A stretch of DNA of 33,057 nt from IMG/VR virus record IMGVR_UViG_2897328257_000006, positions 1 through 33,057 of that record; one strand, 5' to 3'. The notes beneath the pieces were generated by a model. That model did not search any database, was not told the DNA's origin, and was given only the letters and a program-made list of their open reading frames with translations. Source of the DNA: a virus. Taxonomy: Duplodnaviria > Heunggongvirae > Uroviricota > Caudoviricetes. Below, piece after piece: positions 1 to 26,539 of the stretch (position 1 is its first letter; the number at the start of each line of letters is the position of its first letter). Made by a program: the position numbers and the translations under genes.

Positions 1-1362
1 ATGTTTAAACCGGAACTCCTTTCCCCGGCGGGAACGCTGAAAAATATGCGTTACGCTTTCGCTTATGGCGCAGATGCTGTTTATGCGGGCCAGCCGCGTT
101 ATTCCCTGCGTGTGCGCAACAACGAATTCAACCACGAAAATCTTCAGCTCGGCATCAATGAAGCCCACGCGCTGGGGAAAAAGTTTTATGTCGTGGTCAA
201 CATTGCACCGCACAACGCCAAGCTGAAAACCTTTATCCGTGACCTGAAACCGGTGGTGGAAATGGGGCCGGATGCGCTGATTATGTCCGATCCAGGGCTG
301 ATTATGCTGGTGCGTGAGCACTTCCCTGAAATGCCGATCCACCTTTCGGTGCAGGCTAACGCCGTGAACTGGGCGACGGTGAAATTCTGGCAGCAAATGG
401 GCCTGACCCGCGTGATCCTCTCTCGCGAGCTGTCGCTGGAAGAGATTGAAGAGATCCGCAATCAGGTGCCGGATATGGAGATCGAGATCTTCGTTCACGG
501 CGCGCTGTGCATGGCCTACTCCGGTCGCTGCCTGCTCTCTGGCTATATCAACAAGCGCGACCCGAACCAGGGCACCTGCACCAACGCCTGCCGCTGGGAG
601 TACAACGTCCAGGAAGGGAAAGAAGATGATGTTGGCAACATCGTACACAAGTACGAGCCGATTCCGGTGCAAAATGTTGAGCCGACGCTGGGTATCGGCG
701 CACCAACCGACAAAGTGTTTATGATCGAAGAGGCCCAGCGTCCGGGCGAGTATATGACCGCGTTTGAAGATGAGCACGGCACTTACATCATGAACTCGAA
801 AGATCTGCGCGCCATCGCCCATGTAGAACGCCTGACCAAAATGGGCGTGCATTCGCTGAAAATCGAAGGTCGTACCAAATCTTTCTACTATTGTGCACGC
901 ACCGCACAGGTTTACCGCAAAGCTATCGATGACGCCGCTGCGGGAAAACCGTTCGATACCAGCCTGCTGGAAACTCTGGAAGGTCTGGCGCATCGTGGCT
1001 ATACCGAAGGTTTCCTGCGTCGTCATACTCACGACGATTATCAGAACTACGAATACGGTTATTCAGTTTCTGACCGCCAGCAGTTTGTTGGTGAGTTTAC
1101 CGGTGAGCGCAAGGGGGACCTCGCGGCGGTAGCGGTGAAAAATAAATTCTCCGTTGGCGACAGCCTTGAGCTGATGACGCCGCAAGGCAACATTAATTTT
1201 ACCCTTGAGCACATGGAAAACGCCAAAGGCGAAGCTATGCCGATAGCACCAGGCGATGGTTATACTGTGTGGCTCCCGGTCCCGCAGGATCTTGAGCTCA
1301 ATTACGCGCTGCTGATGCGTAATTTCTCCGGGGAAACCACGCGTAATCCCCACGGTAAGTGA
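1..1362 (+). CDS. yegQ: U32-family peptidase-like protein YegQ/TrhP (tRNA hydroxylation), complete 453 aa
   Basis: ORF starts at base 1 with ATG; protein MFKPELLSPAGTLKNMRYAFAYGADAVYAGQPRY... matches the E. coli YegQ sequence and length as I recall it; lies immediately upstream of cyaR as in E. coli K-12. Confidence 0.9.
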   Translation: MFKPELLSPAGTLKNMRYAFAYGADAVYAGQPRYSLRVRNNEFNHENLQLGINEAHALGKKFYVVVNIAPHNAKLKTFIRDLKPVVEMGPDALIMSDPGLIMLVREHFPEMPIHLSVQANAVNWATVKFWQQMGLTRVILSRELSLEEIEEIRNQVPDMEIEIFVHGALCMAYSGRCLLSGYINKRDPNQGTCTNACRWEYNVQEGKEDDVGNIVHKYEPIPVQNVEPTLGIGAPTDKVFMIEEAQRPGEYMTAFEDEHGTYIMNSKDLRAIAHVERLTKMGVHSLKIEGRTKSFYYCARTAQVYRKAIDDAAAGKPFDTSLLETLEGLAHRGYTEGFLRRHTHDDYQNYEYGYSVSDRQQFVGEFTGERKGDLAAVAVKNKFSVGDSLELMTPQGNINFTLEHMENAKGEAMPIAPGDGYTVWLPVPQDLELNYALLMRNFSGETTRNPHGK

Positions 1363-1394
1363 TTAATTTCGATTATTTTTCCCGGATGGAAAAT

Positions 1395-1446
1395 TCTTAG
1401 AAACCGATCACATACAGCTGCATTTATTAAGGTTATCATCCGTTTC
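1395..1446 (+). promoter_or_regulatory. Putative cyaR promoter (-10 TATCAT at 1434..1439; possible CRP half-site TCACA near 1408)
   Basis: TATCAT hexamer ends 7 nt before the inferred sRNA 5' end; cyaR is known to be CRP-activated; only one CRP half-site is clear by eye. Confidence 0.45.
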
Positions 1447-1533
1447 GCTGAAAAACATAACCCATAAAATGCTAGCTGTACCAGGAACCACCTCCTTAGC
1501 CTGTGTAATCTCCCTTACACGGGCTTATTTTTT
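1447..1533 (+). ncRNA. cyaR: CyaR (RyeE) Hfq-binding small RNA, 87 nt
   Basis: Sequence GCTGAAAAACATAACCCATAAAATGCTAGCTGTACCAGGAACCACCTCCTTAGCCTGTGTAATCTCCCTTACACGGGCTTATTTTTT matches remembered E. coli CyaR; terminator hairpin (CCTGTGTAA/TTACACGGG) plus T-run at the 3' end; correct position between yegQ and a P2 ogr gene. Confidence 0.85.
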
Positions 1534-1534
1534 A
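1507..1534. repeat. att core copy 1 (host cyaR 3' end / prophage ogr-proximal junction), AATCTCCCTTACACGGGCTTATTTTTTA
   Basis: Exact 28-bp direct repeat of 32555..32582; its reverse complement contains the remembered 27-bp P2 att core AAAAAATAAGCCCGTGTAAGGGAGATT. Confidence 0.9.
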
Positions 1535-1596
1535 CGCGTAATACAATGAAATAAAAGGATTTATTTCTGGTCACGTCCACACATTGACCACATCGA

Positions 1597-1621
1597 CAAA
1601 AAAGCCCCTCGACTGAGGGGC
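1597..1621 (-). terminator. Rho-independent terminator downstream of ogr
   Basis: Stem GCCCCTC/GAGGGGC (1604..1610 and 1615..1621) with 4-nt loop; on the minus strand it is followed by a run of T (complement of A-run 1597..1603), just past the ogr stop. Confidence 0.6.
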
Positions 1622-1634
1622 TTCCTGTATGTAA

Positions 1635-1853
1635 TTACATCCACATAATTTGCTGCCCTGACGGCAACGGGTGCGGTCTTACGGCGTGGACTTCTCCCGG
1701 CTTCACGATGTATCGCTGTACCGACTCATAAGTGATGAACGTGGCGCTGCAATTCACGTTCTGACACTGGTGATAACGCTCTTTTGTCGTGTCAGTGATA
1801 TAGCGGCTTGTACGCGCATGTGCGGCATGCTGGCATAAAGGACAATGAAACAT
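1635..1853 (-). CDS. ogr: Ogr late-gene transcriptional activator (C4 zinc finger), 72 aa
   Basis: MFHCPLCQHAAHARTSRYITDTTKERYHQCQNVNCSATF... matches P2 Ogr; internal ATG at 1853 chosen over the longer track ORF because it is preceded by a GGAAGAGG Shine-Dalgarno sequence and gives the known 72-aa length. Confidence 0.92.
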   Translation of the reverse strand: MFHCPLCQHAAHARTSRYITDTTKERYHQCQNVNCSATFITYESVQRYIVKPGEVHAVRPHPLPSGQQIMWM

Positions 1854-1934
1854 CGCGAGCACCTCTTCCGGTTTTGTTGATGGTGCCATTTTAGTTAATT
1901 TATCCTTATAAAACAAACAGATAAAATAAAAACA

Positions 1935-3098
1935 TCACTCATTATATTCTGTTTCGTACTCCACATCAGAAAGCCTGACCTCAAGCTCCAAGGACGTCGT
2001 GAAGCCGCTATTATTCAGAAAATGTGTCACCTTAGTGATTGTCCAGTCCTGCTCGTCTATGACGCGCTTAAAGCCTGACACTTTAACCGGTGTTTCCGTG
2101 TAAATATCTGCCCGACCGGTAGCCAGGCTGATGGAGAACTCCGCCACACCCCGTTGCAGTTTATCCCACTTCGCCTGAGCGGCGCGCATGGCCTGCGCTT
2201 TCGTGGCATATACCGTAGTCAGGGCAAAAACGTTGTCAGCCTCACCGGCCATGTATTCACCTTCGCGCGCTTCCGGTACTTTTGGCGCTTTCTTCTGCGT
2301 GACCGGTTTTGCTTTCGGGTGCTCCAGTGCGCGCAGGTGTTTTTCTTTCTTTTTGCGTTTCAGTTTTACCTTCTGCTTTTGTGGTTTCGGGTCTTTGGTG
2401 TGTAACCACTTTGCCGTTACGCCGGTGTAAGCTCCACGGTCAGCAATCGCAAAATGATGACGGTCGCCGTCGCTGCGGGTGATGGTAATCTGCGGGATTT
2501 TTTTACCACTGGCCGTCACCCCCTGCCCCGCTTTGAGAAACAGCAGTTTTCCCATTTTTACCGACACCTCGCCGCCGTTACGTTCTGCAAGACGGGTCAG
2601 AAATTTCGCATCAGACTCCTGCGACTGGTCGATGTGCGGGATTTTAATTCCGGCCAGTGACGGAGCGACACTGGCTTCCAGCCTGTTACGGGAGGCTATC
2701 GCCTCAACAATCGCACCGAGCGTGGTGTCATGCCATGAGCCTTCACGGCGGGAATTGAGCGTCCCGCGAAAATCTGCACTCCGGGCGCGGATGGTGACCA
2801 CATCCGGCGCGCCCCGGTGTTCAACCTCATCAACGGTGAATTTCCCTTTGCATACCAGGGCAAAACCTTTCCAGCCGATATACACCGTCAGGACAGCGCC
2901 ACGAACCGGCAGCCCAACCTGCCCGTCGGCATCGTTCAGTTCAATATCAAGCTGGTCAGCCTCAAAGCCCCGGTTATCCGTCAGAGTCATGCTCATCAGA
3001 CGGTCACTGATATTGCCGGTAATATCCCTGCTGTCGAGCATCAGCATGTAATCCGGCGTCAGCGTACTGCCTGCATCAAATGTCAGCGCATCCAGCAT
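1935..3098 (-). CDS. D: Tail protein D (387 aa)
   Basis: 387-aa ORF in the P2 position after ogr; length and N-terminus MLDALTFDAGSTLTPDYMLMLDSRDITG consistent with P2 gpD. Confidence 0.9.
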   Translation of the reverse strand: MLDALTFDAGSTLTPDYMLMLDSRDITGNISDRLMSMTLTDNRGFEADQLDIELNDADGQVGLPVRGAVLTVYIGWKGFALVCKGKFTVDEVEHRGAPDVVTIRARSADFRGTLNSRREGSWHDTTLGAIVEAIASRNRLEASVAPSLAGIKIPHIDQSQESDAKFLTRLAERNGGEVSVKMGKLLFLKAGQGVTASGKKIPQITITRSDGDRHHFAIADRGAYTGVTAKWLHTKDPKPQKQKVKLKRKKKEKHLRALEHPKAKPVTQKKAPKVPEAREGEYMAGEADNVFALTTVYATKAQAMRAAQAKWDKLQRGVAEFSISLATGRADIYTETPVKVSGFKRVIDEQDWTITKVTHFLNNSGFTTSLELEVRLSDVEYETEYNE

Positions 3099-3577
3099 TA
3101 TCCCGCCCCCGTCATACCCGTGAATCTGGTCGCCATACTGCCAGCCTTACCGATGAGCGATTCCGCCTGTTTACCGATATCGCCATAAAGCGCGGCCAGT
3201 GATTCATCAACGCGGGTGAGCGACAGCGTAAAATCAATTTTCCGGGGTGTGCCGTCTGCAAAGAAAATACTCCCTGTTTCACTCACCCTGCTGATGACAT
3301 ACATGCCGTAAATCATGCCGGTGCCATCCAGCAACGGCCACGCCCGGCCTTCCTCTGCCATCAGTCTGAGCGTGGTCATCGTCAGCTTCCCGCCGGTCAG
3401 TTCGGGATAAAGCACGCCGGCAAGCGTGATGTTTTCCTCACCCACACCGAGAAACTGAAAGGCATCCCGTTTACCGATACGGGAATTTGACGGCCAGCGA
3501 TAATCTGATTCACGCTGCATGGTCTGGTGTGGCAGCGTCTGGCGCATAAAAACAAACATACCTAACGCGAGCATCAT
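3098..3577 (-). CDS. U: Tail protein U (159 aa)
   Basis: 159-aa ORF in P2 synteny between T and D; overlaps the D start by one base. Confidence 0.88.
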   Translation of the reverse strand: MMLALGMFVFMRQTLPHQTMQRESDYRWPSNSRIGKRDAFQFLGVGEENITLAGVLYPELTGGKLTMTTLRLMAEEGRAWPLLDGTGMIYGMYVISRVSETGSIFFADGTPRKIDFTLSLTRVDESLAALYGDIGKQAESLIGKAGSMATRFTGMTGAG

Positions 3578-3591
3578 TTTTCGTCACCTCC

Positions 3592-5710
3592 TTAACCGTC
3601 ATGCATCATGCTGGCACGGGCGCGCGCACGTTTATCCCGCTCGTATTTTTCGAGCGCATCCTGTAACTGGCGGTCGAGCTGTGTCCCCGGCGCAGTACCG
3701 CCCGTCAGGCTGATGTGATATTCGTTTTTACTCTGGTCCACATAAGAGCGGCCAGCCGGTGCCGTAACTGGCTGATAAGCCTGATAGCCAGCATAAGAGC
3801 TGGTCGCCGGAATATAACCACCGGTGCCATACGTGGCGGCACGAGTTCTGGCGGCGGTCTGGTCAAGCGTGCCTGACTCTTTGTTGATGACGCCGAGTTT
3901 TTCCAGTACCCAGTCAATACCGCTGCGCAGTTTGTTGAACGCATTAAGCGGCAGCATCAGCGCGTCAGCCAGTGCCTGCCCGAACATGACGCCCGTGTCA
4001 CGGCAACGGTTCAGGGTGTCCTGGGTGGCTTTGACCGGGGCAATCAGGTTTTTAAACCACTGCCACGCGGCCTGTAACTTTTCACCCAGCCAGTCAAACA
4101 CCGGCTTAAGTGGCGTGAACAGCTCCCCCACCGGCGCAAATGCCGCTTTCAGCCCTTCAACCACACCGCCAAAGAATGCGCTGACAGGCTCCCAGTATTT
4201 ACGGATAAGTAACGCCCCGGCGACAATAGCGGCCACCACAGCCACAACCGGCCAGCTAATCGCCCCGATGGCGGTCATAACAGCACTGCCAACCGTCGTG
4301 AAAATTGCCCCCATTGCGCCTGCTGCCGCGATGATGGCATTAATGCCGGTGATAACCGGCCAGGCTACAAGACCAATGGCACCGATGATGCCAGTAAGCG
4401 CCAGTGCGCCACCGACAATGAGGCCGATGGTTGACGCCAGTGATTTGTTTTTCTGTATCCAGCCGTCGAGTTTTAACACATACTTTGTGGCCGTCTGCGT
4501 GAGCTTACGCAGCGCGCCTTCCTGCTGGTCAAACAGGTCAGTCCCCACCGCCTCATAAGCGGACTGAAACTCCTTAAAGTCACCGCCGAGGTTGTCCTGC
4601 ATGATATTTACCAGCTCGGCGGTCTTCCCGTCTGAGGCTTTAAACGCAGCGGTCAGTTTGTCCAGCTTTCCGGTTGAGGCGGCAGTCATCAGCACGGCGG
4701 CGGCTGAGCTGGCCTCCTCACCGAAAATAGTTTTCATGTATTCAGCCTGCTGGGCAGTACCGAGCCGGTTTTTCTCAAAACTGGCCTGCATTTCTTTCAG
4801 AATGGTAAATACTGGTCGGGTATTCCCTTTACTGTCTGAGGTTTTCACGCCAAGCTCTTTCAGTGCATCCCATGCTTTTCCCGTCGGTGCCTGCAGGCGG
4901 CTTAACACGGCACGGCTTCCCGTCCCCGCCATTGAACCGGTAATTTTTGCATCATGCAGTGCCCCGACCATTGCGGCGGTTTCTTCAATGCTGACACCGG
5001 CATTTTTTGCCACAGGTGCGGCATAGGTCAGCGCATCGCTCATGCCATCAAAATCGGCGGCGGTTTTGTTCATCGTCATGGAGAGAACATCCCCGATATG
5101 AGCGACCTTATCGTTTGAAAGCTGAAAGGCGGATTTCATCCCCATCAGCAGGGCGGCGTTTTCTTCCATCGTGCGACGGTTCGCCAGCGCCATATTCAGC
5201 GTGACCGGCGTTGCCGCCTGAATGGCATCAACATCCCCACCGGCTTTCGCAATAATAATCTGCGCACCGGCTGCATCATCTGCCGAGGCTGCGGTATTGT
5301 CGCCGAGCTGGCGCGCCTGCTTGCGTAGCGCGGCCATTTCGGCGGAGTCTTTTGCCACACCGAGCACAGCCTGCAATTCTGAGTTTTTCTGCGCAAACTC
5401 ATAACCGGGCATCAGCAACTTAACTCCGGCCATCGTTCCCGCCGCCGCAATCCCCACACCGGCAGCGCCCACTGAGGCCATATTTCCGGCCAGTTCCTTG
5501 CCTGCCTGATAACGCTGTTTGACTGCGTTAAGTTTTGCCTGTTGTGCACTGACACGCGCCAGTGCGTCACGCTGACGGTTAAGCTGTGCGGTGGTTTCAC
5601 TGATACGGTTTTTCAGTCCCTGCTCATCATGTGCAAGATTGCGGGTATTAATTCCCACAGCGGCCAGTTCCCGCTGCTGGCGTTTAACGGAGTCCGTCAG
5701 GCGGTTATAT
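3592..5710 (-). pseudogene. T: Tape-measure protein T, 5'-truncated (about 704 codons remain; no in-frame start outside the FI overlap)
   Basis: Long ORF with typical tape-measure composition (Ala/Gly-rich, hydrophobic segment IGLIVGGALALTGIIGAIGLVAWPVITGINAIIAAAGAMGA); the first 24 codons of the track ORF overlap FI coding sequence in another frame, and P2 gpT is 815 aa as I recall. Confidence 0.65.
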
Positions 5711-6580
5711 GTAGTTTTCAAAGAGGAACAGCGGGTCATCAGAGCAGGTACGGTTACCCCAGAAGCGGAAACCGTCACGGCGAATCAGCGTTGTGACACC
5801 TGACTCGTTCAACAGGTCAGCATCGGTGCCGGACTCCTGCAAATCCCAGAATACAGAGGCACTGATGCCGGTAACACCGTTTACCCCGACGTTGGACAGC
5901 GTTTTATGCCAGCCCTGCTCCTGGTCGATTTTAGCGCGCAGGCCCAGCGCACGGGCGGTGGCATACGCGGTGGCGGTGGTACTGGCGACCGTATCCCATG
6001 CGAGGAAATCCGGCCAGATGACCATCAGCTCACGCTGGCTGAAATTCTGACGGTAGGCTTTCACCTCGGAAATGGTTTTACAGTCCCATGCGCTGATATA
6101 CCCGAAAGCGCGCAGCTTCTGACAGACTGATGCCAGTGCAACAGCCACCTCTTTGGTGTCCAGTCCCGGCACACCGAGAATGCGAGGTTTAACACCGGTT
6201 ACCGACTCCGCCGCCAGCAGGGCTTTCAGTCCGGTGTACTGACCGTTTTCGTCGGTGGTGCCGATGATATTGGAAACGGTCTGCGCGAGTTTCGTTTCCT
6301 CGTCGTCGCCGGTGCCGTCTTCCACACGCACGACAACGGTGACCGGTTTTGACTGGTCGGCGATAGCCTGCAACGATGCCGCCAGCGTGCCTTTTTTACC
6401 GGCCTTTGCAATTGCGCTTTGCACATTGGTAATCAGCACCGGTTTATTGAGGGGGAAGGTTTCCGCATCCGCATCGCTGGCCGTGCAGACCATGCCGACA
6501 ATGGCAGTGGATACAGTGGAAATGACGCGGGTGCCGTCGTTAATCTCCAGCACCTGCACGCCGTGATGATAGTCACTCAT
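5705..6580 (-). pseudogene. FI: Tail sheath protein FI, 3'-truncated (291 aa versus about 396 aa in P2)
   Basis: N-terminus MSDYHHGVQVLEINDGTRVISTVSTAIVGMV... matches P2 FI; reading frame ends ...LFLFENYI-stop at 5705, where P2 FI continues; good RBS GGAG upstream of the ATG at 6580. Confidence 0.7.
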
Positions 6581-6684
6581 CCGTTTAACTCCGTGGTTAA
6601 TGGGTGCAACTATTTTCTGTTGGGCAGTGCATGAGACGCTATTTGACCTGGCTGGTCAGTGGATGAAACAACAGATAAAGAAAA

Positions 6685-6703
6685 GGCGGGCAATTCGCCC
6701 GCC
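6685..6703. terminator. GC-rich hairpin GGCGGGC-AATT-CGCCCGCC upstream of FI, flanked by an A-run; possible terminator or boundary element
   Basis: Perfect 7/8-bp GC stem with 4-nt loop seen directly; lies between the late tail operon start and the cargo region; function not established. Confidence 0.35.
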
Positions 6704-6798
6704 TGTCCTGATTTGTACTCACTCATTTCCCAACTGGCAACTTACATAGCCAAAACGCTATCAAATCTGACAGTCTGCTTTGAGCGAGAAGCGGAAGT

Positions 6799-7065
6799 AT
6801 GAAACTTGTTCTCACCACCGATGAAGCATTACAAACAATGCAGTTAGTTTATCAACGGGCAGGATCAGGGCGTACTCTCAAGCGGTTTAAGATTGATAAC
6901 CTCAGGTACATTCATCTTGCCACGTTTCATATAGCGTATTTGCGACAGAGTTCATGTGAAGAAACACCGACTACGAGGATGATATTCATGTTGTATTGTT
7001 CGGGAAATCACTTCTTCATATGGAACCCTCATCACACTTACAAAACCATTATTAACATAGCTTAA
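6799..7065 (+). CDS. Hypothetical 88-aa protein (orphan ORF at the edge of the cargo hotspot)
   Basis: Only ORF of 60 aa or more on either strand in 6600..7300; weak RBS-like GGAAG just upstream; no recognisable motif. Confidence 0.25.
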   Translation: MKLVLTTDEALQTMQLVYQRAGSGRTLKRFKIDNLRYIHLATFHIAYLRQSSCEETPTTRMIFMLYCSGNHFFIWNPHHTYKTIINIA

Positions 7066-7079
7066 GTGTTAATCAAAAT

Positions 7080-7305
7080 TGAGCCATTCACATTACATTA
7101 GGTAAGGCATCTTACTAAAAATATTGTAATGTTTTGTTTTTAAAGATAAAGATTTCAGGTTGAAAACCAAAAATTTTTAGTTAAAAATATTTATGGTGTA
7201 TGTAAAAAATGATAAGGTAGTGATAAGACATAAGTTTGTAAAACACATGTTAAATTTCAATGCTGATGAAAAAGCTTAGCGTTAATCAAAACAGGAGCAA
7301 GAAGA
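7080..7305 (+). promoter_or_regulatory. AT-rich putative promoter region for the cargo operon (e.g. TTGAAA at 7160..7165)
   Basis: About 200 bp of very AT-rich sequence immediately upstream of a strong RBS (AGGAG 7293..7297); several -35/-10-like hexamers, none decisive. Confidence 0.4.
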
Positions 7306-8136
7306 TTGAAAGTTATTAGCTTAATCAATATGAAAGGTGGCGTTGGTAAGTCAACATTGGCTACCAATATTGCTAATCATCTTTCAGATAAACTTGGGCA
7401 AAAAATATTATTAATAGATATCGACCCACAATTTAACGCAACGCAATGTGTAATGGATACAAGCAAATATGTTGCACATATGAAAAGCGGAGGCGATAGC
7501 ATATGTGATATTTTTTATAGTTCAAAAATTCGACTATCTACAATGACTGGTCCTTTAGTTAACACACCTAAAGAATTAGCCGATATAACACCAATTCAAT
7601 TAAATGATAATTTTCACATTGTTCCCGGAAGCCTTGGGCTATATAAAATTGAAATGAAACCAGGAGAAGGGATAGAAAACAAGCTTAGACGCTTTCTTAA
7701 AATCCATGAAAATGACTATGATTATGTCATAATTGATACCCCACCAACCCCATCAGTTTGGATGTCCAGCGCATTAATTGCATCTGATTATTACCTCATT
7801 CCAGCCAAACCCGATCCTCTTTCGATCACTGGTATCGATCTATTAGATAGCATTATAAATGAGAAGAGAGAAAATTTCGATCTTAAGATTGAATGTGCGG
7901 GCATAGTTTTTAATATGGTTGAAGGTAATAGTAATTTATATGAGGAAAGTCTTCGTTACTTCAATAATCAAAAACGTTGGCGTAATAAGATCTTTAAATC
8001 ATATTTGAGCAAACGTACTGAGTTGGCAAGAAATCAAACAAGAGGCTTATTTATTAACAATTTAACGGATGAGGATATGAAGTTTTCGCTGTCTAAAATT
8101 ACTGACGAACTTCTCTCTAGAGTAGGTGACTTATGA
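7306..8136 (+). CDS. ParA/MinD/Soj-family P-loop ATPase (276 aa), cargo gene 1
   Basis: Deviant Walker A KGGVGKST near the N-terminus, DIDPQ motif, Walker B-like YVIIDTPP; TTG start preceded by AGGAG at 8-nt spacing; AT-rich relative to the phage backbone. Confidence 0.8.
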   Translation: MKVISLINMKGGVGKSTLATNIANHLSDKLGQKILLIDIDPQFNATQCVMDTSKYVAHMKSGGDSICDIFYSSKIRLSTMTGPLVNTPKELADITPIQLNDNFHIVPGSLGLYKIEMKPGEGIENKLRRFLKIHENDYDYVIIDTPPTPSVWMSSALIASDYYLIPAKPDPLSITGIDLLDSIINEKRENFDLKIECAGIVFNMVEGNSNLYEESLRYFNNQKRWRNKIFKSYLSKRTELARNQTRGLFINNLTDEDMKFSLSKITDELLSRVGDL

Positions 8137-8639
8137 CTGACAAAAAAAATAACTCAAAAGAAATTAAGCAACTGTTAAACTTTTTAGAGGAGTTTTCCTT
8201 TATTTCAAAAAAATTATCAAGAATCAACTTTATTGAATTACTTCAAGATAGTTATACTGATAATTTAGAAGTTAACGAAAGAAATTCAAAGTCCAAAAAA
8301 AATGATATTAAAGGTTTCCTTGTTGGGTATCTTCCGAGGATTTTATTAGACAAAGATCTCTTCCAAAAAAATAAAGATATAGATGATTTTGCACGCATGT
8401 TAGGTATCGAAATCAGCAGGCCTGAAAAAAGATCTAGAGAGGAAATGATCGGCATAATCGTGTGTGACGTTCACGAGAAAAACTCATCCGATTTAGGTAA
8501 GGCTTATAATATTATCAATTCAATGTCAAATAACCCTCAAGTTTTGAGTAGAATAAAAGAGAGGAAGAACCTTTCTAGCGCTCAAAATGAGATATATGAC
8601 TGGAATGAAGTTATAAAAGATATATTCAATAAGGACTAA
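8133..8639 (+). CDS. Hypothetical charged (Lys/Glu/Asn-rich) 168-aa protein, cargo gene 2
   Basis: ATG overlaps the stop of gene 1 (ATGA), preceded by AGGTGA; no motif recognisable by eye. Confidence 0.7.
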   Translation: MTDKKNNSKEIKQLLNFLEEFSFISKKLSRINFIELLQDSYTDNLEVNERNSKSKKNDIKGFLVGYLPRILLDKDLFQKNKDIDDFARMLGIEISRPEKRSREEMIGIIVCDVHEKNSSDLGKAYNIINSMSNNPQVLSRIKERKNLSSAQNEIYDWNEVIKDIFNKD

Positions 8640-8641
8640 CA

Positions 8642-9337
8642 ATGTCGAGAGAAGTAAACAGCGATTTCACTGAGTTAGTTACTTATTTCTCTGAATATAA
8701 ATTAAAAAATGTTTTCGAGAATATTAACTCAAGAGGGAAAATAAGCATGATACATAAGAGATATTATTCTTTTATGTGCCTTGTTTACTGTTTGTATCAT
8801 TTCTCCAAGGAGAAAATAGACGCCAACTCATTGGAGCGATTGCAAGAAGCTTCATCTGACCTTGGTACAGCTATGTTTATGGTTATAAATGGTGCATACA
8901 AACCAGCAAATCTAATGATGCGAAGTTATATTGAAAATTCTTTAAAATCAATCGGTTGCTTACTAGATCCTTCAATACTTGAAGAAAAATCATTGTTTAA
9001 GGTAATTGAACAAACTGGGGAACATCCTGTCTTCAAAAAAAATCCTCTACTACATGAAACTTTAAAAGCTGAATACTCTTCGTTATGCAGTCACGTACAT
9101 ACAGCTACTGTAAAAGAAATGGCTCACATAAAAGCTTTAAATGTTTTTCCCGAAATAGACTTGGTTAAAATAGATAATATTTCGAAGGTGATTGATAAGG
9201 TGGTTAAGACTATGATATCAACTATCATAAGAATTTTTCCTGATGTTTTCTTTTCCTTTGCACCTGAGTATCGAGAAAAAATCCTCCTTAGCTTAACCTC
9301 TGCACAACGAGCCTCACTTCATTCCTTAAGTGATTAA
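8642..9337 (+). CDS. Hypothetical 231-aa protein, cargo gene 3
   Basis: Starts 3 nt after the gene 2 stop with AAGGA RBS; same AT-rich composition; no motif recognisable by eye. Confidence 0.7.
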   Translation: MSREVNSDFTELVTYFSEYKLKNVFENINSRGKISMIHKRYYSFMCLVYCLYHFSKEKIDANSLERLQEASSDLGTAMFMVINGAYKPANLMMRSYIENSLKSIGCLLDPSILEEKSLFKVIEQTGEHPVFKKNPLLHETLKAEYSSLCSHVHTATVKEMAHIKALNVFPEIDLVKIDNISKVIDKVVKTMISTIIRIFPDVFFSFAPEYREKILLSLTSAQRASLHSLSD

Positions 9338-9354
9338 CTAACAAGTATGACATA

Positions 9355-9380
9355 AAAACTATCCTATTGTGATAGTTTTT
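9355..9380 (+). terminator. Weak AT-rich hairpin plus T-run downstream of cargo gene 3
   Basis: AAAACTATC-CTATTGT-GATAGTTTT inverted repeat followed by T; stem is AT-rich, so strength is uncertain. Confidence 0.4.
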
Positions 9381-9618
9381 ATGTTCATTAAGATGACTAT
9401 ATCAGGAATTATTGCCGAATTTTAATTTTCATATTGATTTTACTATCTCTCACCAACTCTTGTAAGTATCCTTCCGCCACAAGCGGACCATGTGCATTTA
9501 AATATCTGACCTAACGTGCCGTAACGCCGCAATGTCCGCTTCTGGCACAGAGCGGACTGTCAGATTAGGCTTTACTCTGTGCCATAGATATGTAAGCTCC
9601 CACTAGAGTTCATACAAG

Positions 9619-10146
9619 TTATTGCGGCATTTCCGGCCATTCAGGATTTGCAGGATCCACACGACTGACCAGAACGCTGTAGCGCTCCCATCTTTCCAGT
9701 CGGCTACGCTCCTCATCTGTTGCCATATTCAGCCTGACAGCACGCTCTAGCGGCAAAATCACGGATTCAGCATCTGCAAGAAGTCTGGCTTTCCTGTTTT
9801 CTGCCTGCTGTTGCAATTCCTCTGCCGTATAAATTCGTTTGATCACTGTGCCATCCTTAAACATCCAGTTCCCTGAAATGTCCGCCCGTCGATTAGCAGT
9901 AATATCCGGCACTTCAACAACACTTAATCCATCTGGTCTGATAGCTGTCACATCCTTTTCCACATAGCGGATAATATTATCTTTGTCGTACGCTATTTTT
10001 ATCGTGTCATCAGCAAAATACTTTTGTTCTTCGTACCAGTTCTTACCATCTTCTGAAAAAAACCAGACAACATCAAAGTCCTTTGTCAATTGATATTGTT
10101 CAACCGTTTTTGGATTACCTGCCGTTATATTTATCAAATGCTGCAT
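9619..10146 (-). CDS. G: Tail fibre assembly protein G (175 aa)
   Basis: 175-aa ORF directly downstream of H, as in P2; C-terminal ...[27 protein letters not shown] is typical of the tail-fibre chaperone family. Confidence 0.88.
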
Positions 10147-10149
10147 AAA

Positions 10150-12044
10150 TTATACCTGCGCCACGTTGTACCACGTCCCGTTAATGTATTTCTGAACCGG
10201 TCTGTAATATACGCCACCAATGTTATCGGCAGAGTTTGAGCCGGTATCCTGAACAATAATGCCGGTATATACACACCCGGACGGTGCCTGATGTGTCCAT
10301 GTCATGCCATTGTTCGCAGGTTTGTATGTGGCGGCACCACCAAGCCGGATATCCCGGACATAGCGGGAGTCAAAATTGCTGAAATTTGATGGTATCACCT
10401 GCCCGGTAACCCGTAGTGCATCAGACTTAAGCGTCATCAGGTCTTTTGTTGTGCTGCCAGACCTGATGCGCCATTTAAAATATTCATTGCCATTATCACC
10501 AGTTTCAAACCACATGTATGAGTCAGAATCAGCATCTGAATCATTTTTAAATCCAATTTTCGCCCAGTCAGTGTTTCTTTCCCAAATCAGGAAGGCATCA
10601 TTGATAAATTTTATGCTGCCTGACATGCTTCCGCCTGATAATGCCAGAGCAAGAATATCCGCAGGTGTTGGCTTTCGTGATGTTGTATAAAACTCAGACC
10701 AGTCAGCCTCAAATCCATACCCATCACGTGCCGACCTGTAAAAAATCCCCCTGTTTTTATAATCCACAAGAAACTGCATTGCCGGACAACTTCCCTCACC
10801 CGTGTAAAAATGCAGCACCATTTTTGATGCTCCGCCATCCTGTGCACAATAAGCACCACTATCCCAGTTCCATCCTACCGCTTTATTATTTGCAACCGTA
10901 TTTCCTGTTTTCCCTAATGCAAAAGCCGGTTGCTTATTTTTCGTATTGTAGTCGCGTCGCCAGCCCGGCGCATAATCAGCTCCGTGATTGATATACGTGA
11001 ATTGCGCACTGGTGGTACCACCACCGCTTGATGTACTCGGAGTGGTCACACGAATGGTCATTGCAGCTTTAACGCCCATAACCTCAATCACGCAACCTGC
11101 AAGATGAATAGTCCCACAGTCAGTATCGGTAATAATTTTGTTATTACCGTATGACCAGGAACACTTGCACATCCAGTAGGGATGATTAAAGGCTCCCTGA
11201 GACTCTAGCCAGTCAATAAACTGAGCGGTTGTCCAGTTTCCGGCTTCAGTGCTCAAAGCACCGCTATAAGCACGACAGGCACCGATATTTTTCGTGAAAG
11301 TATCCTTTCCCGGAATATCCGCACCGTTCTGATCTTTCTGAAGACGTTTTTCAGCATTGTCATAGGCAGACTTCACCGCTTTTGGTGTTGCAGCCAGCGT
11401 TTCAGAATCGCTGTTGATNNNNNNNNNNNGTTAGCAAGGTCATACGCGGCCTTTACCGCTTTTGGTGTTGCGGCGAACGTTTCAGACGTGCTGTTGGTCG
11501 CACTGCTTAACTGAGTAAAACCTTTGGCGGTCAGCGAGGCGTCAGGGTGACGTCGTGACTGTTCATGTTCTGCAATTTTGTCATCAACGTAATCCTGCGT
11601 TGCCATCACCGTTGTGGTGTCAATGGTCAGCTCCACTGAGGCCACACTGCTGACGATGATGACCATGCGGCAGGTCTGCGAACGCCCTGAGCCTTCGGCA
11701 AGGGCTGGCTTATAACTTTCGGCCATGTTCGCCACGGCAATTAGCGTTCCCGCATCATCGTACAGGCCAAGTTCACGCATCCAGAAACCGCCCACCTCCG
11801 GCGGAATAACCAGCTCTGCGATAATATAATTACTGTTTCGTTTGTCCTGGCTGATTTTGTTCAGCGCATGTCGCCAGACTTCGTGGATAAGCCCGGTCTG
11901 TCCGGCATCCGGGACAGGCAATTTACCACCGCCATCCCCGACGGCCATCGTGGTAATGTTGACCTTCCGCCCTCCCGGTGCGGTTGCCGCTGCCAGCTTT
12001 GCTGCACCGGCAGTGGTGATAACGGTTCTGAATTTTGTGCTCAT
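10150..12044 (-). CDS. H: Tail fibre protein H, interrupted by an 11-N assembly gap at 11419..11429
   Basis: Two ORF segments (11373..12044 and 10150..11376) carry tail-fibre repeat motifs (TPKAVKAAYDLA / KSAYDNAEKRL) on either side of the N-run; combined length is close to P2 gpH (669 aa). Confidence 0.8.
11419..11429. other. Assembly gap (run of N)
   Basis: 11 consecutive N characters in the sequence. Confidence 0.99.
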
Positions 12045-24022: not shown

Positions 24023-25216
24023 TTAAATTCTGCATCCATCGGTTTGAAAATGTGATCCGTTTTTCGAATTCAAACTCAACTCTGTTTGACTCTTTTGAAC
24101 ATTAATAGTTTTACCAGTAAGGACATCCAAAACCCCTGCAGCAACAGCCTGCGCCAATTTACAAGGCACAGCATTCCCTATCTGACGCCAAATTGACGAA
24201 TTTTTCCCCACAAAGACATAATTACTCGGGAATGTTTGAATCAAAAGAGCCTCATCTATCGTTAGTCGACGTAAACGACTAGGTACATCGTGCATATCTT
24301 TTGGCTCACCACCATTCATTAGATGATTATGATAAGTCTCAACATAACTTGTTGAGCCATCATAAAGGTGTTCTTCATCAATAATTGGTGTCCTATTCCC
24401 CCCCATAGAAGCAGCTATAGTTGAAGCATACCCATTCGGGTTAATTGGTCTTCCCTGCCCGTTAAACATCATTCCCGCGTAAGGTGACTTCCGTAATACT
24501 GGCTTAGCAGCATTTGTAATCCTTGCATTACAGACTCTTGAATTGTTTGGATTACCCGCTCGCCCTAAAGGCCGAATAATCTCACCAACTGTGGGCGAAA
24601 GATATTGGTATTTTTTTATCGCCACCTCAACTCGTTTCACATCATTTTCGGAACGAAACCCTATAAAAAACATACGTTCCCTATTCTGAGGAACGCCAAA
24701 ATCTTTAGAATTCAGCACCAGCAAGGCTGAACGATAGCCTGACTTTTCAGCCATCTTAAACAGTTCACACCTAACTGGTTCAAATTTGGACAACTGTGCT
24801 AAAGCCTTAACATTCTCCATAACAAAGCATTCTGGTTGAATTATATCCACCGCCCGCATGAATGACATAACCAGCTTACTACGTGGATCATGAGCGTCCA
24901 TTTTCCCTGCCACAGAAAATCCTTGGCATGGAGGCCCACCAAAAACACAACCTATATTTTTCAGCCCAGACAATTCACTTAGCATCTCATCAATATCACC
25001 ACAAAAAACAGGTGATTCATGATTAAGCTTAAATGTATCACATGCATCCTTATCTATATCATTGGCCCAAACTGTTCGGAACCCGGCATTAGAGAAACCG
25101 ACATCCATCCCTCCTGCCCCAGTAAATAAGCTCACCGCTGAAATTTTGTTCACTTCTTTAGCACCAATTATTCGATTTTGGAATAAAACCAATGATAGGT
25201 AAGGATCGACACACAA
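24023..25216 (-). CDS. DNA (cytosine-5) methyltransferase of a type II R-M system; probable true start GTG at 25153 (376 aa)
   Basis: m5C-MTase motifs seen in order: FTGAGG (I), PPCQGFS (IV), ENV (VI), QNRER (VIII), GNAVP (X). The track ORF uses a TTG that overlaps the divergent controller ORF; the GTG at 25153 gives MNKISAVSLFTGAGG. Confidence 0.85.
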   Translation of the reverse strand: MCVDPYLSLVLFQNRIIGAKEVNKISAVSLFTGAGGMDVGFSNAGFRTVWANDIDKDACDTFKLNHESPVFCGDIDEMLSELSGLKNIGCVFGGPPCQGFSVAGKMDAHDPRSKLVMSFMRAVDIIQPECFVMENVKALAQLSKFEPVRCELFKMAEKSGYRSALLVLNSKDFGVPQNRERMFFIGFRSENDVKRVEVAIKKYQYLSPTVGEIIRPLGRAGNPNNSRVCNARITNAAKPVLRKSPYAGMMFNGQGRPINPNGYASTIAASMGGNRTPIIDEEHLYDGSTSYVETYHNHLMNGGEPKDMHDVPSRLRRLTIDEALLIQTFPSNYVFVGKNSSIWRQIGNAVPCKLAQAVAAGVLDVLTGKTINVQKSQTELSLNSKNGSHFQTDGCRI

Positions 25217-25506
25217 TCAATCACCTTCTAAACCACATGGCAAAACGACAACCAACTATACATGATCATAGATACAGGTGCCTAGTCCAGCTTCTCACCA
25301 AACTACGCAAAGAAGCTTCTCTTTCGCAGTCAGAATTGGCCATTTTTCTAGGATTATCACAATCAGATATATCTAAAATCGAAAGCTTTGAAAGGCGATT
25401 AGATGCTTTAGAACTATTTGAATTATTAGAGGTGGTTGCAAGCCGATTAGGTCTACCAATGGATATCTTACTAAAGGACACCTATGAAAGTATTAGTAAA
25501 TCATGA
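25192..25506 (+). CDS. Controller (C) protein, XRE-type helix-turn-helix regulator (89-104 aa depending on start)
   Basis: HTH-like segment LSQSELAIFLGLSQSDISKIE; divergent from the MTase and overlapping the start of the downstream endonuclease ORF, the usual C-R arrangement. Alternative start ATG at 25237. Confidence 0.65.
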   Translation: MIGKDRHTINHLLNHMAKRQPTIHDHRYRCLVQLLTKLRKEASLSQSELAIFLGLSQSDISKIESFERRLDALELFELLEVVASRLGLPMDILLKDTYESISKS

Positions 25507-26539
25507 GCAAGCCTATAATGTAATTATAAATGCAATCAACGATGCAAAAAAATTAACTGATTACAAAACAAATAATCAATGGGTCTCCATTCAAAATGTA
25601 ATTTTAGGCACCCACCTTACATACAGATATATACTTATTACTGGTTTACTTGCTAAAGCAACAGACCCTAGAGTAAACCCTCTGGCTTTACAAGCTAATG
25701 CCCCCGTAGACGGAGCCTATGATGCAAGAAGTTTATGTCATTCGGTAATAGTAGGCAAAGTAGAAGGCCCATTTTTAGAGGGTAAGTTAGGCGCATCAAA
25801 TGAGCCATTTCTAAATAAACCAGCTCGTTACATGCTCCACTCCTCTGATAACCCTGTGCGCAGAGGAAATGATAAGGTTTTACAACAACTTTCAATTGAT
25901 ATATTACATGCAGCAACAACCCAAATCTTAGCTTATGAAATGCTTGTTATTGCATTATATTTTACCCTACAGCGAACCAATAGAGTTATAACGCCGAACT
26001 CAATTAATTTTGATTTCCATAAGATTATTTATAATATTATATCTCATCCTTGTGATGGAGAAACATGCGCGATTGCTGCCGCAATTTCGTTACACTTATT
26101 AGGTGAACAAAGAGGATGGATAATAAAAGCACATCCCGTCAATCAGGCCGGTAGCTCCTCAAAAGAGATACTGGACATAGATGTATATCATGATGATATA
26201 GTTTTCCTTTCTATAGAAGTGAAAGACAAACCATTTAATTATCAAGATGTTAATCACGCCGTTTCAAAAGCATCTGCATCCGGGATTTCAAAAGTTATCT
26301 TCCTTAAAGGGCCAAGAGCAACAAACTTAGATATTGATGAGTCTATTGCGATTGAGAACGCTGCGACAAAAGGTGTTTCACTAAGCTTTAGTGACGTCAT
26401 GACATTCACAACAACATGTTATGCGTTATCGCCACTATTAAGTAATGACAGAATAATAGATTTCATAAATAACACTTTAAAAGACATCAGAGCTAAAGAT
26501 AGCACTATAGAATACATACAATCCATATTTAAAAATTAA
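25484..26539 (+). CDS. Putative type II restriction endonuclease (351 aa)
   Basis: Position downstream of and overlapping the C gene, opposite the MTase; candidate PD-(D/E)xK-like element in DIDVYHDDIVFLSIEVKDK; AAGGA RBS; AT-rich. Enzymatic identity is inferred from context, not proven. Confidence 0.6.
   Translation: MKVLVNHEQAYNVIINAINDAKKLTDYKTNNQWVSIQNVILGTHLTYRYILITGLLAKATDPRVNPLALQANAPVDGAYDARSLCHSVIVGKVEGPFLEGKLGASNEPFLNKPARYMLHSSDNPVRRGNDKVLQQLSIDILHAATTQILAYEMLVIALYFTLQRTNRVITPNSINFDFHKIIYNIISHPCDGETCAIAAAISLHLLGEQRGWIIKAHPVNQAGSSSKEILDIDVYHDDIVFLSIEVKDKPFNYQDVNHAVSKASASGISKVIFLKGPRATNLDIDESIAIENAATKGVSLSFSDVMTFTTTCYALSPLLSNDRIIDFINNTLKDIRAKDSTIEYIQSIFKN

Follow-up and report, generated by a model that had tools for sequence, protein, structure and literature searches.

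Why should a prophage of Escherichia coli carry a gene for a ParA-type ATPase, followed closely by two genes of no named family? The question is raised by a stretch of 33,057 nucleotides (IMG/VR record IMGVR_UViG_2897328257_000006, positions 1 to 33,057), the whole of which is called the window here. The window is a P2-like prophage, 100% identical across the cassette region to the chromosome of E. coli S19-141, and the three genes form a cassette in its Z/fun slot, between the sheath gene FI and the tail-fibre assembly gene G. A first, sequence-only reading of this DNA had proposed the cassette as a candidate undescribed anti-phage system. The analysis reported here suggests, with a probability of roughly 0.75, that the cassette belongs, as a divergent member, to the RemAIN family, whose systems are borne by prophages and serve in defence and phage competition. 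That reading rests on the obligate association of the three genes, the HEPN-like predicted fold of the third protein, the homology of the trio to RemAIN, the phage defence shown for RemAIN itself, and the defence-like contexts in which the cassette is found. An anti-phage or phage-competition role, as first supposed, is thus still the best interpretation, by analogy through remote homology to RemAIN.

The three genes and their products

The genes lie on the plus strand at 7306-8136 (gene 1, a RemA-like ParA/Soj-family ATPase of 276 amino acids with a TTG start), 8133-8639 (gene 2, a RemI-like small all-helical protein of 168 amino acids, presumed to be an immunity or adaptor subunit) and 8642-9337 (gene 3, a RemN-like protein of 231 amino acids with a predicted HEPN fold, presumed to be the RNase effector). 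Their tight coupling, described from the letters at the outset, was confirmed: genes 1 and 2 share an ATGA overlap, gene 3 follows gene 2 after 2 nucleotides and has AAGGA upstream, and AGGAG stands 7 nucleotides 5' of the TTG of gene 1. The open reading frames (ORFs) agree with the NCBI annotation of the identical region of S19-141, which has the same three genes with the same starts and names them 'ParA family protein' and two hypothetical proteins. The TTG start is retained in the Enterobacter and Pectobacterium orthologues, and a lambdoid copy has ATG at the equivalent position. As had been estimated by eye, the cassette is AT-rich, with a G+C content of 0.31-0.34 over 7001-9500 against 0.55-0.58 in the late genes; it is also transcribed against its late-gene flanks, FI and G both being on the minus strand.

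Judged by its motifs and profile matches, gene 1 encodes a complete ParA/Soj-type ATPase. It has the ParA/MinD motif set recognised by the sequence-only reading (KGGVGKST, IDIDPQ, IIDTPP) and matches Pfam AAA_31 (1.4e-37) and CbiA (1.4e-18) as well as phrog_164, 'ParA-like partition protein' (5.7e-60). Its best solved relatives are the delta protein of pSM19035 (PDB 2oze, 3.3e-21) and Soj, and its match in PADLOC-DB 2.0.0 was limited to a 37-residue P-loop stretch of PDC-M28B.

Genes 2 and 3, in which no motif had been recognised by inspection, likewise met no named family in scans of Pfam, NCBIfam and PADLOC-DB 2.0.0, and PDB sequence-profile searches with both gave chance-level matches only. 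Each has a full-length match in PHROGs to a family of unknown function (gene 2 to phrog_12497, 6.6e-113; gene 3 to phrog_12265). The empty PADLOC result for these component proteins is explained by the date of PADLOC-DB 2.0.0 (2023), which predates RemAIN; nor are ParA-type systems mentioned in DefensePredictor, Vassallo 2022 or the domain-centric screen. The AlphaFold2 (AF2) model of the gene 2 protein consists entirely of helices, with a predicted local distance difference test score (pLDDT) of 75, and a fold search with it gave no convincing match. The conserved core of the protein is LLDKDLF-x-N-x-D-x-x-DF ... KRSRxE(M/L)IG ... WN.

The gene 3 protein is predicted to fold as a HEPN-like helical bundle, the model agreeing in a fold search with the four-helix up-and-down HEPN core; a Foldseek search of BFVD found nothing significant. 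In an alignment of 154 gene 3 relatives, R94, E98, Y145 and H153 are invariant, and E69, S72, G84 and K87 nearly so. The protein would presumably be a nuclease with a putative site formed by R94/E98/N99 together with Y145/H153, a pair that sits on another helix and may be what completes it. Compared with the HEPN abortive-infection nucleases (HepS of Gifsy-1, PrrC, RloC, AbiF/AbiV-type), it shares the HEPN-like helical core and a location in prophages or defence islands, and a similar outcome would be expected, namely cleavage of RNA, probably tRNA, with arrest of translation. It differs from them in being a separate polypeptide that is always accompanied by a ParA-type ATPase (not an ABC or STAND protein) and a small partner, and in having no canonical Rx4-6H motif.

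Comparison with RemAIN

RemAIN consists of the RemA ATPase, the RemI immunity protein and the HEPN anticodon nuclease RemN, encoded by STM14_3218-3220 in the Gifsy-1 prophage of Salmonella Typhimurium 14028 (PMC13043305, PMC12409363, PMC12626290). It was published by Sargen and Helaine (Cell Host Microbe 2024), as cited in PMC13043305. According to the same three papers, phage defence and tRNA anticodon cleavage by RemAIN were shown experimentally (PMC13043305, PMC12409363, PMC12626290), and two of them describe the Gifsy-1 system as protecting from external phages and limiting co-resident prophages (PMC13043305, PMC12626290). STM14_3218 (ParA-like), 3219 and 3220 adjoin the Gifsy-1 replication genes and are needed during prophage induction for activation of RtcR, which senses RNA ends with 2',3'-cyclic phosphate; deletion of the three genes raised Gifsy titres 2-4 fold, and the authors assigned 3219 and 3220 no function (PMC9879122).

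For comparison, RemAIN DNA was recovered from IMG/VR by means of the 33-nucleotide homology arm of a published (lambda-Red) deletion primer. The locus so found has genes at 4170-5009, 4996-5388 and 5388-6050 with overlapping junctions, and its identity was confirmed by genes of 840 bp and 663 bp lying 378 bp apart, as published, and by the presence of both cloning primers. RemA and the gene 1 protein are 34% identical over 207 amino acids (E 1e-35), both match AAA_31 (~1e-37) and phrog_164, and both have the peptides [LF]INMKGGV and [IV]D[VI]DPQFN, which in RemA read FINMKGGV and IDVDPQFN(ATQ). These are the two signatures of the genome scan described below, which returned almost only ParA proteins linked to such a trio; RemA carries both. 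RemI aligned with the gene 2 family in hhalign with a probability of 82% (E 1e-5, 46 columns) over the motif ILLDKDLxxxNxDxxDF...RSR, and the PHROGs profiles gave a reciprocal match, gene 2 to RemI's phrog_6264 at 5.6e-5 and RemI to gene 2's phrog_12497 at 5.7e-3 (RemI meets its own phrog_6264 at 5.9e-53). All comparisons of RemN set RS-x-IE of the gene 3 family against RSMIE, and Y-x3-C-x2-VH against Y-x3-C-x2-VH. PDB sequence-profile searches with RemI and RemN were at chance level, and no RemAIN structure was found.

Both systems, then, have the order ATPase, small helical protein, HEPN-type protein, with coupled or overlapping junctions, an ATPase of ~277 amino acids, a HEPN-type protein of about 220-230 amino acids and a place in an accessory slot of a temperate prophage; they also have in common RSxIE and Y...C..VH in the nuclease and ILLDKDL...N.D..DF...RSR in the middle protein. 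They differ in that identity is limited to 34% in the ATPase and ~15% over the aligned core of the nuclease, gene 2 is 38 amino acids longer than RemI, and the partner proteins fall into separate PHROGs families. RemAIN occupies a lambdoid immunity/replication region as against a P2-type myovirus slot here, and the clade of the window, known here from sequence, has a much wider distribution (390 clusters at 50% identity, more than 10 phyla). Because order, coupling and sizes are shared, the ATPases are homologous, the middle proteins match reciprocally and the HEPN match is consistent if weak, remote homology of the trio to RemAIN is judged likely. The sequence-only reading could match the composition to no named system; with this distant match (RemA at 34% identity, the cross-matches of gene 2 and RemI) a named system has been found, and 'undescribed' no longer holds.

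Linkage of the three genes across phyla

Whether the three genes always travel together was asked of several collections. Word-based searches gave 12 clusters for gene 2 and 18 for gene 3, and each one examined was in the same three-gene arrangement. The trio was found in a lambdoid prophage between a lambda-P-like gene and RusA/Q, in an Enterobacter island near a DNA methylase, and in a Pectobacterium integrase island beside Mrr_cat and CcdAB. The ParA protein of gene 1 has thousands of relatives at ~50% identity; those of Pseudomonas aeruginosa, Elizabethkingia miricola and Calidifontibacillus oryziterrae are followed by genes of 164-175 and 236-239 amino acids that can be aligned with genes 2 and 3 and retain the invariant residues. 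An exhaustive profile search returned 390 clusters (50% identity) of gene 3 relatives, and the 150 clusters listed are all single-domain proteins of at most ~260 amino acids, most of them 230-245, with some fragments.

A scan of GTDB species genomes with the two ParA peptide signatures found 457 relatives. The best 80 of these come from more than 10 phyla; in 62 the ParA gene is immediately followed by both partners, in about 10 others gene 3 is present, and most of the remainder lie at contig ends, so that the idea of an inseparable trio is upheld. Scans of GTDB genome contigs with gene 3 alignments gave no confirmed match, whereas the scan with the ParA alignment was successful. The 115 nearest neighbouring ORFs of the GTDB trios belong to 127 Pfam families, none of which occurs in more than 3 loci; among them are a few integrases, transposases (IS200-type and DDE), cytosine methylases and Schlafen-like proteins, and neither ParB nor a replication protein is among the families listed. 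As the neighbours are so diverse and the partners so regularly downstream, the trio is a self-contained, strictly linked operon, inserted at many unrelated places.

Two neighbourhoods deserve a separate word. IS200-type Y1 transposases account for 3 of the 115 trio neighbours in other species. In C. oryziterrae (within 1-5500 of the extracted loci) three large serine recombinases and a UPF0175/DUF3368 pair are encoded immediately upstream of the trio, an arrangement that resembles the defence islands marked by serine recombinases (PMC12632615).

Does the cassette belong to the RemAIN family?

Several observations weigh against placing the cassette in the RemAIN family. The gene 3 protein has no canonical HEPN Rx4-6H motif: the window protein reads R94-S-Y-I-E-N99, and among the 154 relatives the position of the histidine (99) is occupied by Asn in 119, Thr in 21 and Ser in 5, never by His, even though RemN has the canonical residue there (RSMIEH). 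RemN scored weakly against the hidden Markov model of the 154 gene 3 sequences (15.5 bits, E 4.6e-7 for a single comparison); hhalign with the gene 3 family gave probabilities of 45-61%, sequence scores were about 13-15.5 bits, and a profile of the second clade gave no stronger match. Gene 2 has 168 amino acids against 130 in RemI, and just ~46 residues align. The neighbours of the GTDB trios are mostly ordinary or housekeeping genes, not a dense defence island. Finally, promoter prediction upstream of gene 1 did not rise above chance, with 11 sigma-70-like sites (for example 7052-7079 and 7160-7188) found against 11.9 expected from shuffled sequence.

Taken by itself, homology of RemN and gene 3 is not proven by these sequence comparisons, and it could be argued that a merely analogous system arose apart from RemAIN by the joining of a ParA-type ATPase with an adaptor and a HEPN-like effector, the last of which could differ in target or chemistry. 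The marginal RemN similarity and the missing Rx4-6H histidine would be in keeping with such an origin, as would the separation of the protein families in PHROGs and the recurrence of ParA ATPases with other partners in P2/P4 hotspots (ParA with RelA_SpoT, AAA_31 with a hypothetical protein; PMC9122126 supplementary tables). Separate assembly is nonetheless improbable in view of the similarity of all three components in the same order and with the same coupling, the presence in RemA of both trio-linked ParA signatures, and the reciprocal cross-match of gene 2 and RemI in an independent profile library. As for the histidine, a distant clade-B member of the gene 3 family (L090) has it at position 99 (VRGIVEH), so that Asn and His interchange at this position within one family. 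Membership of the RemAIN family accordingly stays the preferred reading.

A 2.8-kb mobile unit in E. coli

The Z/fun slot of P2 is known as a hotspot for defence genes, and the sequence-only reading had taken the cassette for foreign cargo there, which is supported. The slot is bounded by the inverted repeats of the Z region, whose left arm (6764-6795, 32 nucleotides) is 88% complementary to the right arm (9535-9566, with the core TCCGCTTCTGGCACAGAGCGGAC); the arms correspond to the 'left/right inverted repeat' features of GenBank P2-EC Z-region records. A short hairpin-like palindrome is present in each end of the cassette (GTCCGCT-N9/10-AGCGGAC; in the left arm GTCYGCT-N9/10-AGCGGA). The trio is carried on a 2.8-kb mobile segment (6772-9580) that by blastn is 99.5-99.8% identical in unrelated chromosomal contexts. 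Those inspected individually were the P2 slot of S19-141 and two other carriers. One has the segment (4676-7481, equal to window 6773-9580) in a chromosomal island beside the type I restriction-modification (R-M) genes hsdM/hsdS and YeeP/Ag43; the other (4673-7458, equal to window 6772-9557) has it in a lambdoid cryptic prophage beside hokD, RusA and Q. What is common to the copies runs from repeat to repeat, from 6772 to 9557-9580, the right end varying with the context.

The cassette was found in 133 of 5,426 complete E. coli genomes, many of them from human and animal isolates, as 134 chromosomal copies and one on a record classed as a plasmid. Identity is 99% or more in every copy, over 80% or more of the cassette, and wherever records were listed or inspected the annotation shows all three genes intact; they are intact even inside the defective P2-like prophage. 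The junction of cassette and P2 sheath gene was met in a single genome of the 5,426, that of S19-141. In IMG/VR, five contigs have an identical gene 3, two in the P2 slot (one with flanks just 97.5% identical) and three in lambdoid surroundings, and all five show the same segment boundaries. The GenBank phage collection held no copy of the cassette by DNA and no protein match to the lambdoid-type gene 3 homologue. With one segment in three unrelated contexts and the sheath junction in one genome, the trio travels as one discrete 2.8-kb module for which the P2 slot is a rare address; the location first described was right, and the emphasis laid on it misleading. In the slot itself, window 6560-6859 is ~90% identical in other P2 prophages with different cargo, and the repeat module is thus common to the slot.

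The known cargo of the P2 hotspots (fun(Z), Old, Tin and the validated systems of Rousset 2022 and Vassallo 2022) resembles the cassette in its slot between G and FI with inverted repeats, in being AT-rich and in being transcribed opposite to its flanks; it differs in having no sequence relation to the cassette genes. The contexts of the trio fit defence cargo, since they comprise the P2 Z/fun hotspot, a type I R-M neighbour and a lambdoid accessory region, with the copies intact.

The same surroundings bear on another explanation, that of a tripartite toxin-antitoxin (TA) or addiction module that stabilises a mobile cassette or island and affects phages incidentally, which is not exclusive with defence. 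Small coupled genes for a putative nuclease and an 'immunity' partner would suit such a module, other TA genes lie nearby in some contexts (CcdAB in Pectobacterium, hokD in E. coli, RelE/RelB on a Plesiomonas plasmid), and the cassette persists intact in a defective prophage. The Gifsy-1 homologue, on the other hand, protects from external phages and limits co-resident prophages, and the ATPase, needless for a simple TA pair, is universally retained; addiction as the primary role is therefore held to be quite improbable, slightly more so than separate assembly of an analogous system.

Is the cassette a partition system?

The third alternative, a ParA-based partition or positioning system, remnant or working, in which gene 2 or 3 would be the centromere-binding protein or cargo adaptor (serving, for example, an excised prophage that persists as a plasmid), is suggested by gene 1 itself. 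It is a bona fide member of the ParA/Soj family, the solved structures nearest to it are those of proteins that partition plasmids and chromosomes, and the first element of a ParABS system, a Walker-type ParA ATPase, is present. The others are not: genes 2 and 3 gave no match to ParB, ribbon-helix-helix (RHH) or helix-turn-helix (HTH) partition proteins in Pfam, NCBIfam, PDB sequence or fold searches, and no iterated parS or centromere repeats were found in 6580-9620, where there are just short two-copy families typical of AT-rich DNA. Against the partition equivalogs of NCBIfam, every score of gene 1 was far below the cut-off. Among 72,556 plasmid records, homologues of gene 3 were matched in two, a 4.8-Mb chromosome filed as a plasmid and a mobilisable Plesiomonas plasmid of 5.8 kb, the one genuine plasmid. 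The trio is instead seated in chromosomes across many phyla, the neighbour families listed include no replication gene, and its third protein has a predicted HEPN fold.

A comparison with the type Ib ParA-ParB-parS systems (pSM19035 delta/omega, TP228 ParF/ParG) leads to the same result. They are alike in having a short ParA that lacks a DNA-binding domain at its N terminus and has a deviant Walker A together with Walker A'/B motifs; the trio differs in having neither a centromere-binding partner nor parS repeats, in its chromosomal or prophage location, and in its HEPN-fold third gene. Rousset et al. did take ParA-containing cargo in the second P2 hotspot to be a putative partition system. 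That 'putative plasmid partitioning system' was considered and set aside as a match, since it concerns the A-Q hotspot and other gene arrangements. The partition reading, which had been thought unlikely from the start, is largely refuted and is much the least probable of the alternatives.

The true plasmid with the trio, Plesiomonas shigelloides p11184 (3664-5734), has its ATPase annotated as 182 amino acids followed by a gap of 280 nucleotides, and the gene is possibly frameshifted; a RelE/RelB pair is also on p11184. In the supplementary tables of Rousset et al. (PMC9122126), about a quarter of the P2 A-Q loci are read as 'putative plasmid partitioning', and these may deserve re-examination as ParA-controlled defence modules.

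Flanks, signals and the host prophage

The left flank of the cassette is the sheath gene FI (5705-6580, minus strand), here a truncated pseudogene, and the right flank is gene G (9619-10146, minus strand), present in both the ORF list and the NCBI annotation of the identical region. Between FI and gene 1, an AT-rich leader (7059-7305, plus strand) is the putative promoter region; it is predicted only, and can be aligned with orthologous loci just at the ribosome-binding site and start. Of the promoter region described in the sequence-only reading, the AT-rich leader has stood, and its promoter sites, being no more numerous than in shuffled sequence, are weaker than stated; a promoter belonging to the cassette is plausible from the sequence. 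A direct repeat, AGYGTTAATCAAAA, brackets this leader at 7065-7078 and 7278-7291, the two copies reading AG(T/C)GTTAATCAAAA, each preceded by GCTTA, and lying 213 nucleotides apart. It was rejected as a general operator or parS candidate, being absent upstream of the Enterobacter, Pectobacterium and lambdoid orthologues, and could be a local operator or a chance match. An ORF of 88 amino acids at 6799-7065, which lies 5' of gene 1 within the mobile segment, was weighed as a possible fourth gene and dismissed: it is unannotated in RefSeq, and in the R-M island copy its ATG is ACG, with an indel nearby. It is probably non-coding.

Directly 3' of gene 3 stands a perfect 14-bp stem-loop (9350-9384; 7-nucleotide loop, 100% complementary), which scored as terminator-like on the minus strand and has a T-run on the plus strand. 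It is likely to terminate transcription in both directions and so to insulate the cassette from the G operon, which converges on it. On the minus strand at 6684-6704, between the left repeat and the sheath gene, there is also a GC-rich terminator-like hairpin of 9 pairs followed by TTTCTTT; given its position, read-through from the G operon would cross the whole cassette in antisense unless stopped at the 9350-9384 hairpin.

The prophage is defective. The FI pseudogene (291 codons, C-terminally truncated; in RefSeq the sheath is 'incomplete; missing C-terminus') abuts and overlaps the tape-measure ORF (3592-6580), the tube gene FII and the E/E' genes being missing between them. The tail-fibre gene H (10150-12044) is disrupted, with an internal stop in the RefSeq annotation of the matching genome and a run of 11 N bases at 11419-11429. 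The other P2 hotspot, from the replication gene A to the portal gene Q (the old/tin site; 24023-26539), is AT-rich (0.35-0.42 G+C) and carries a type II R-M system made up of a SacI-family restriction endonuclease, a small HTH controller and a DNA cytosine methyltransferase. With the trio in the Z slot, the prophage thus has two defence cargos.

A possible mechanism

In E. coli the cassette would presumably serve in defence as RemAIN of Gifsy-1 does. The three proteins would be expressed constitutively from the cassette's own promoter and held in an inactive complex. Gene 3 would supply an RNase with a HEPN fold, which by analogy would cut tRNAs at the anticodon; gene 2, translationally coupled, would supply the partner that confers immunity or acts as adaptor, and gene 1 the ParA-type ATPase that controls the complex. 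A cue from a phage, or from a co-resident prophage entering lytic development, would change the state of the ATPase and free or activate the nuclease. Cleavage of tRNAs would then stop translation and curtail phage production, and recovery of the cell through RtcB-type RNA repair might be possible. The trigger is presumably some feature of lytic development, with gene 1 controlling activation.

A bolder version of this proposal is doubtful, if less so than the alternatives discussed above: rather than a side branch of RemAIN, the family of the window would be the principal clade, ancient and spread across phyla, of an RNase immune module under ParA control, with an active site made of Arg-x3-Glu-Asn and the distal Tyr/His, and a nucleoid-bound ATP-dimer of ParA would read phage-induced changes in the chromosome or in DNA occupancy. 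Such nucleoid-based sensing by gene 1 is speculation; if true, it would be a principle not yet shown for any defence system.

Significance

In summary, the cassette is real, intact, mobile and probably defensive, and of a kind that was already named in 2024. What may go beyond published accounts is the breadth and strict linkage of its clade, the non-canonical HEPN motif, the presence of the trio in E. coli, including the P2 Z slot, and the 2.8-kb mobile unit bounded by inverted repeats, here documented as having moved almost unchanged between the P2 slot, a lambdoid prophage and an R-M island. The findings also correct the customary view of ParA genes in prophages as partition genes. Should the assignment hold, a tRNA-nuclease defence of the RemAIN type is present in E. 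coli under the annotation 'ParA family protein' and two hypothetical proteins; it was missed by PADLOC 2.0.0, and it would offer a tractable model for how a ParA-type ATPase, normally a motor of DNA segregation, gates a HEPN nuclease. Salmonella RemAIN would then be one example of a large family, since the trio is strictly linked in hundreds of species from more than 10 phyla.

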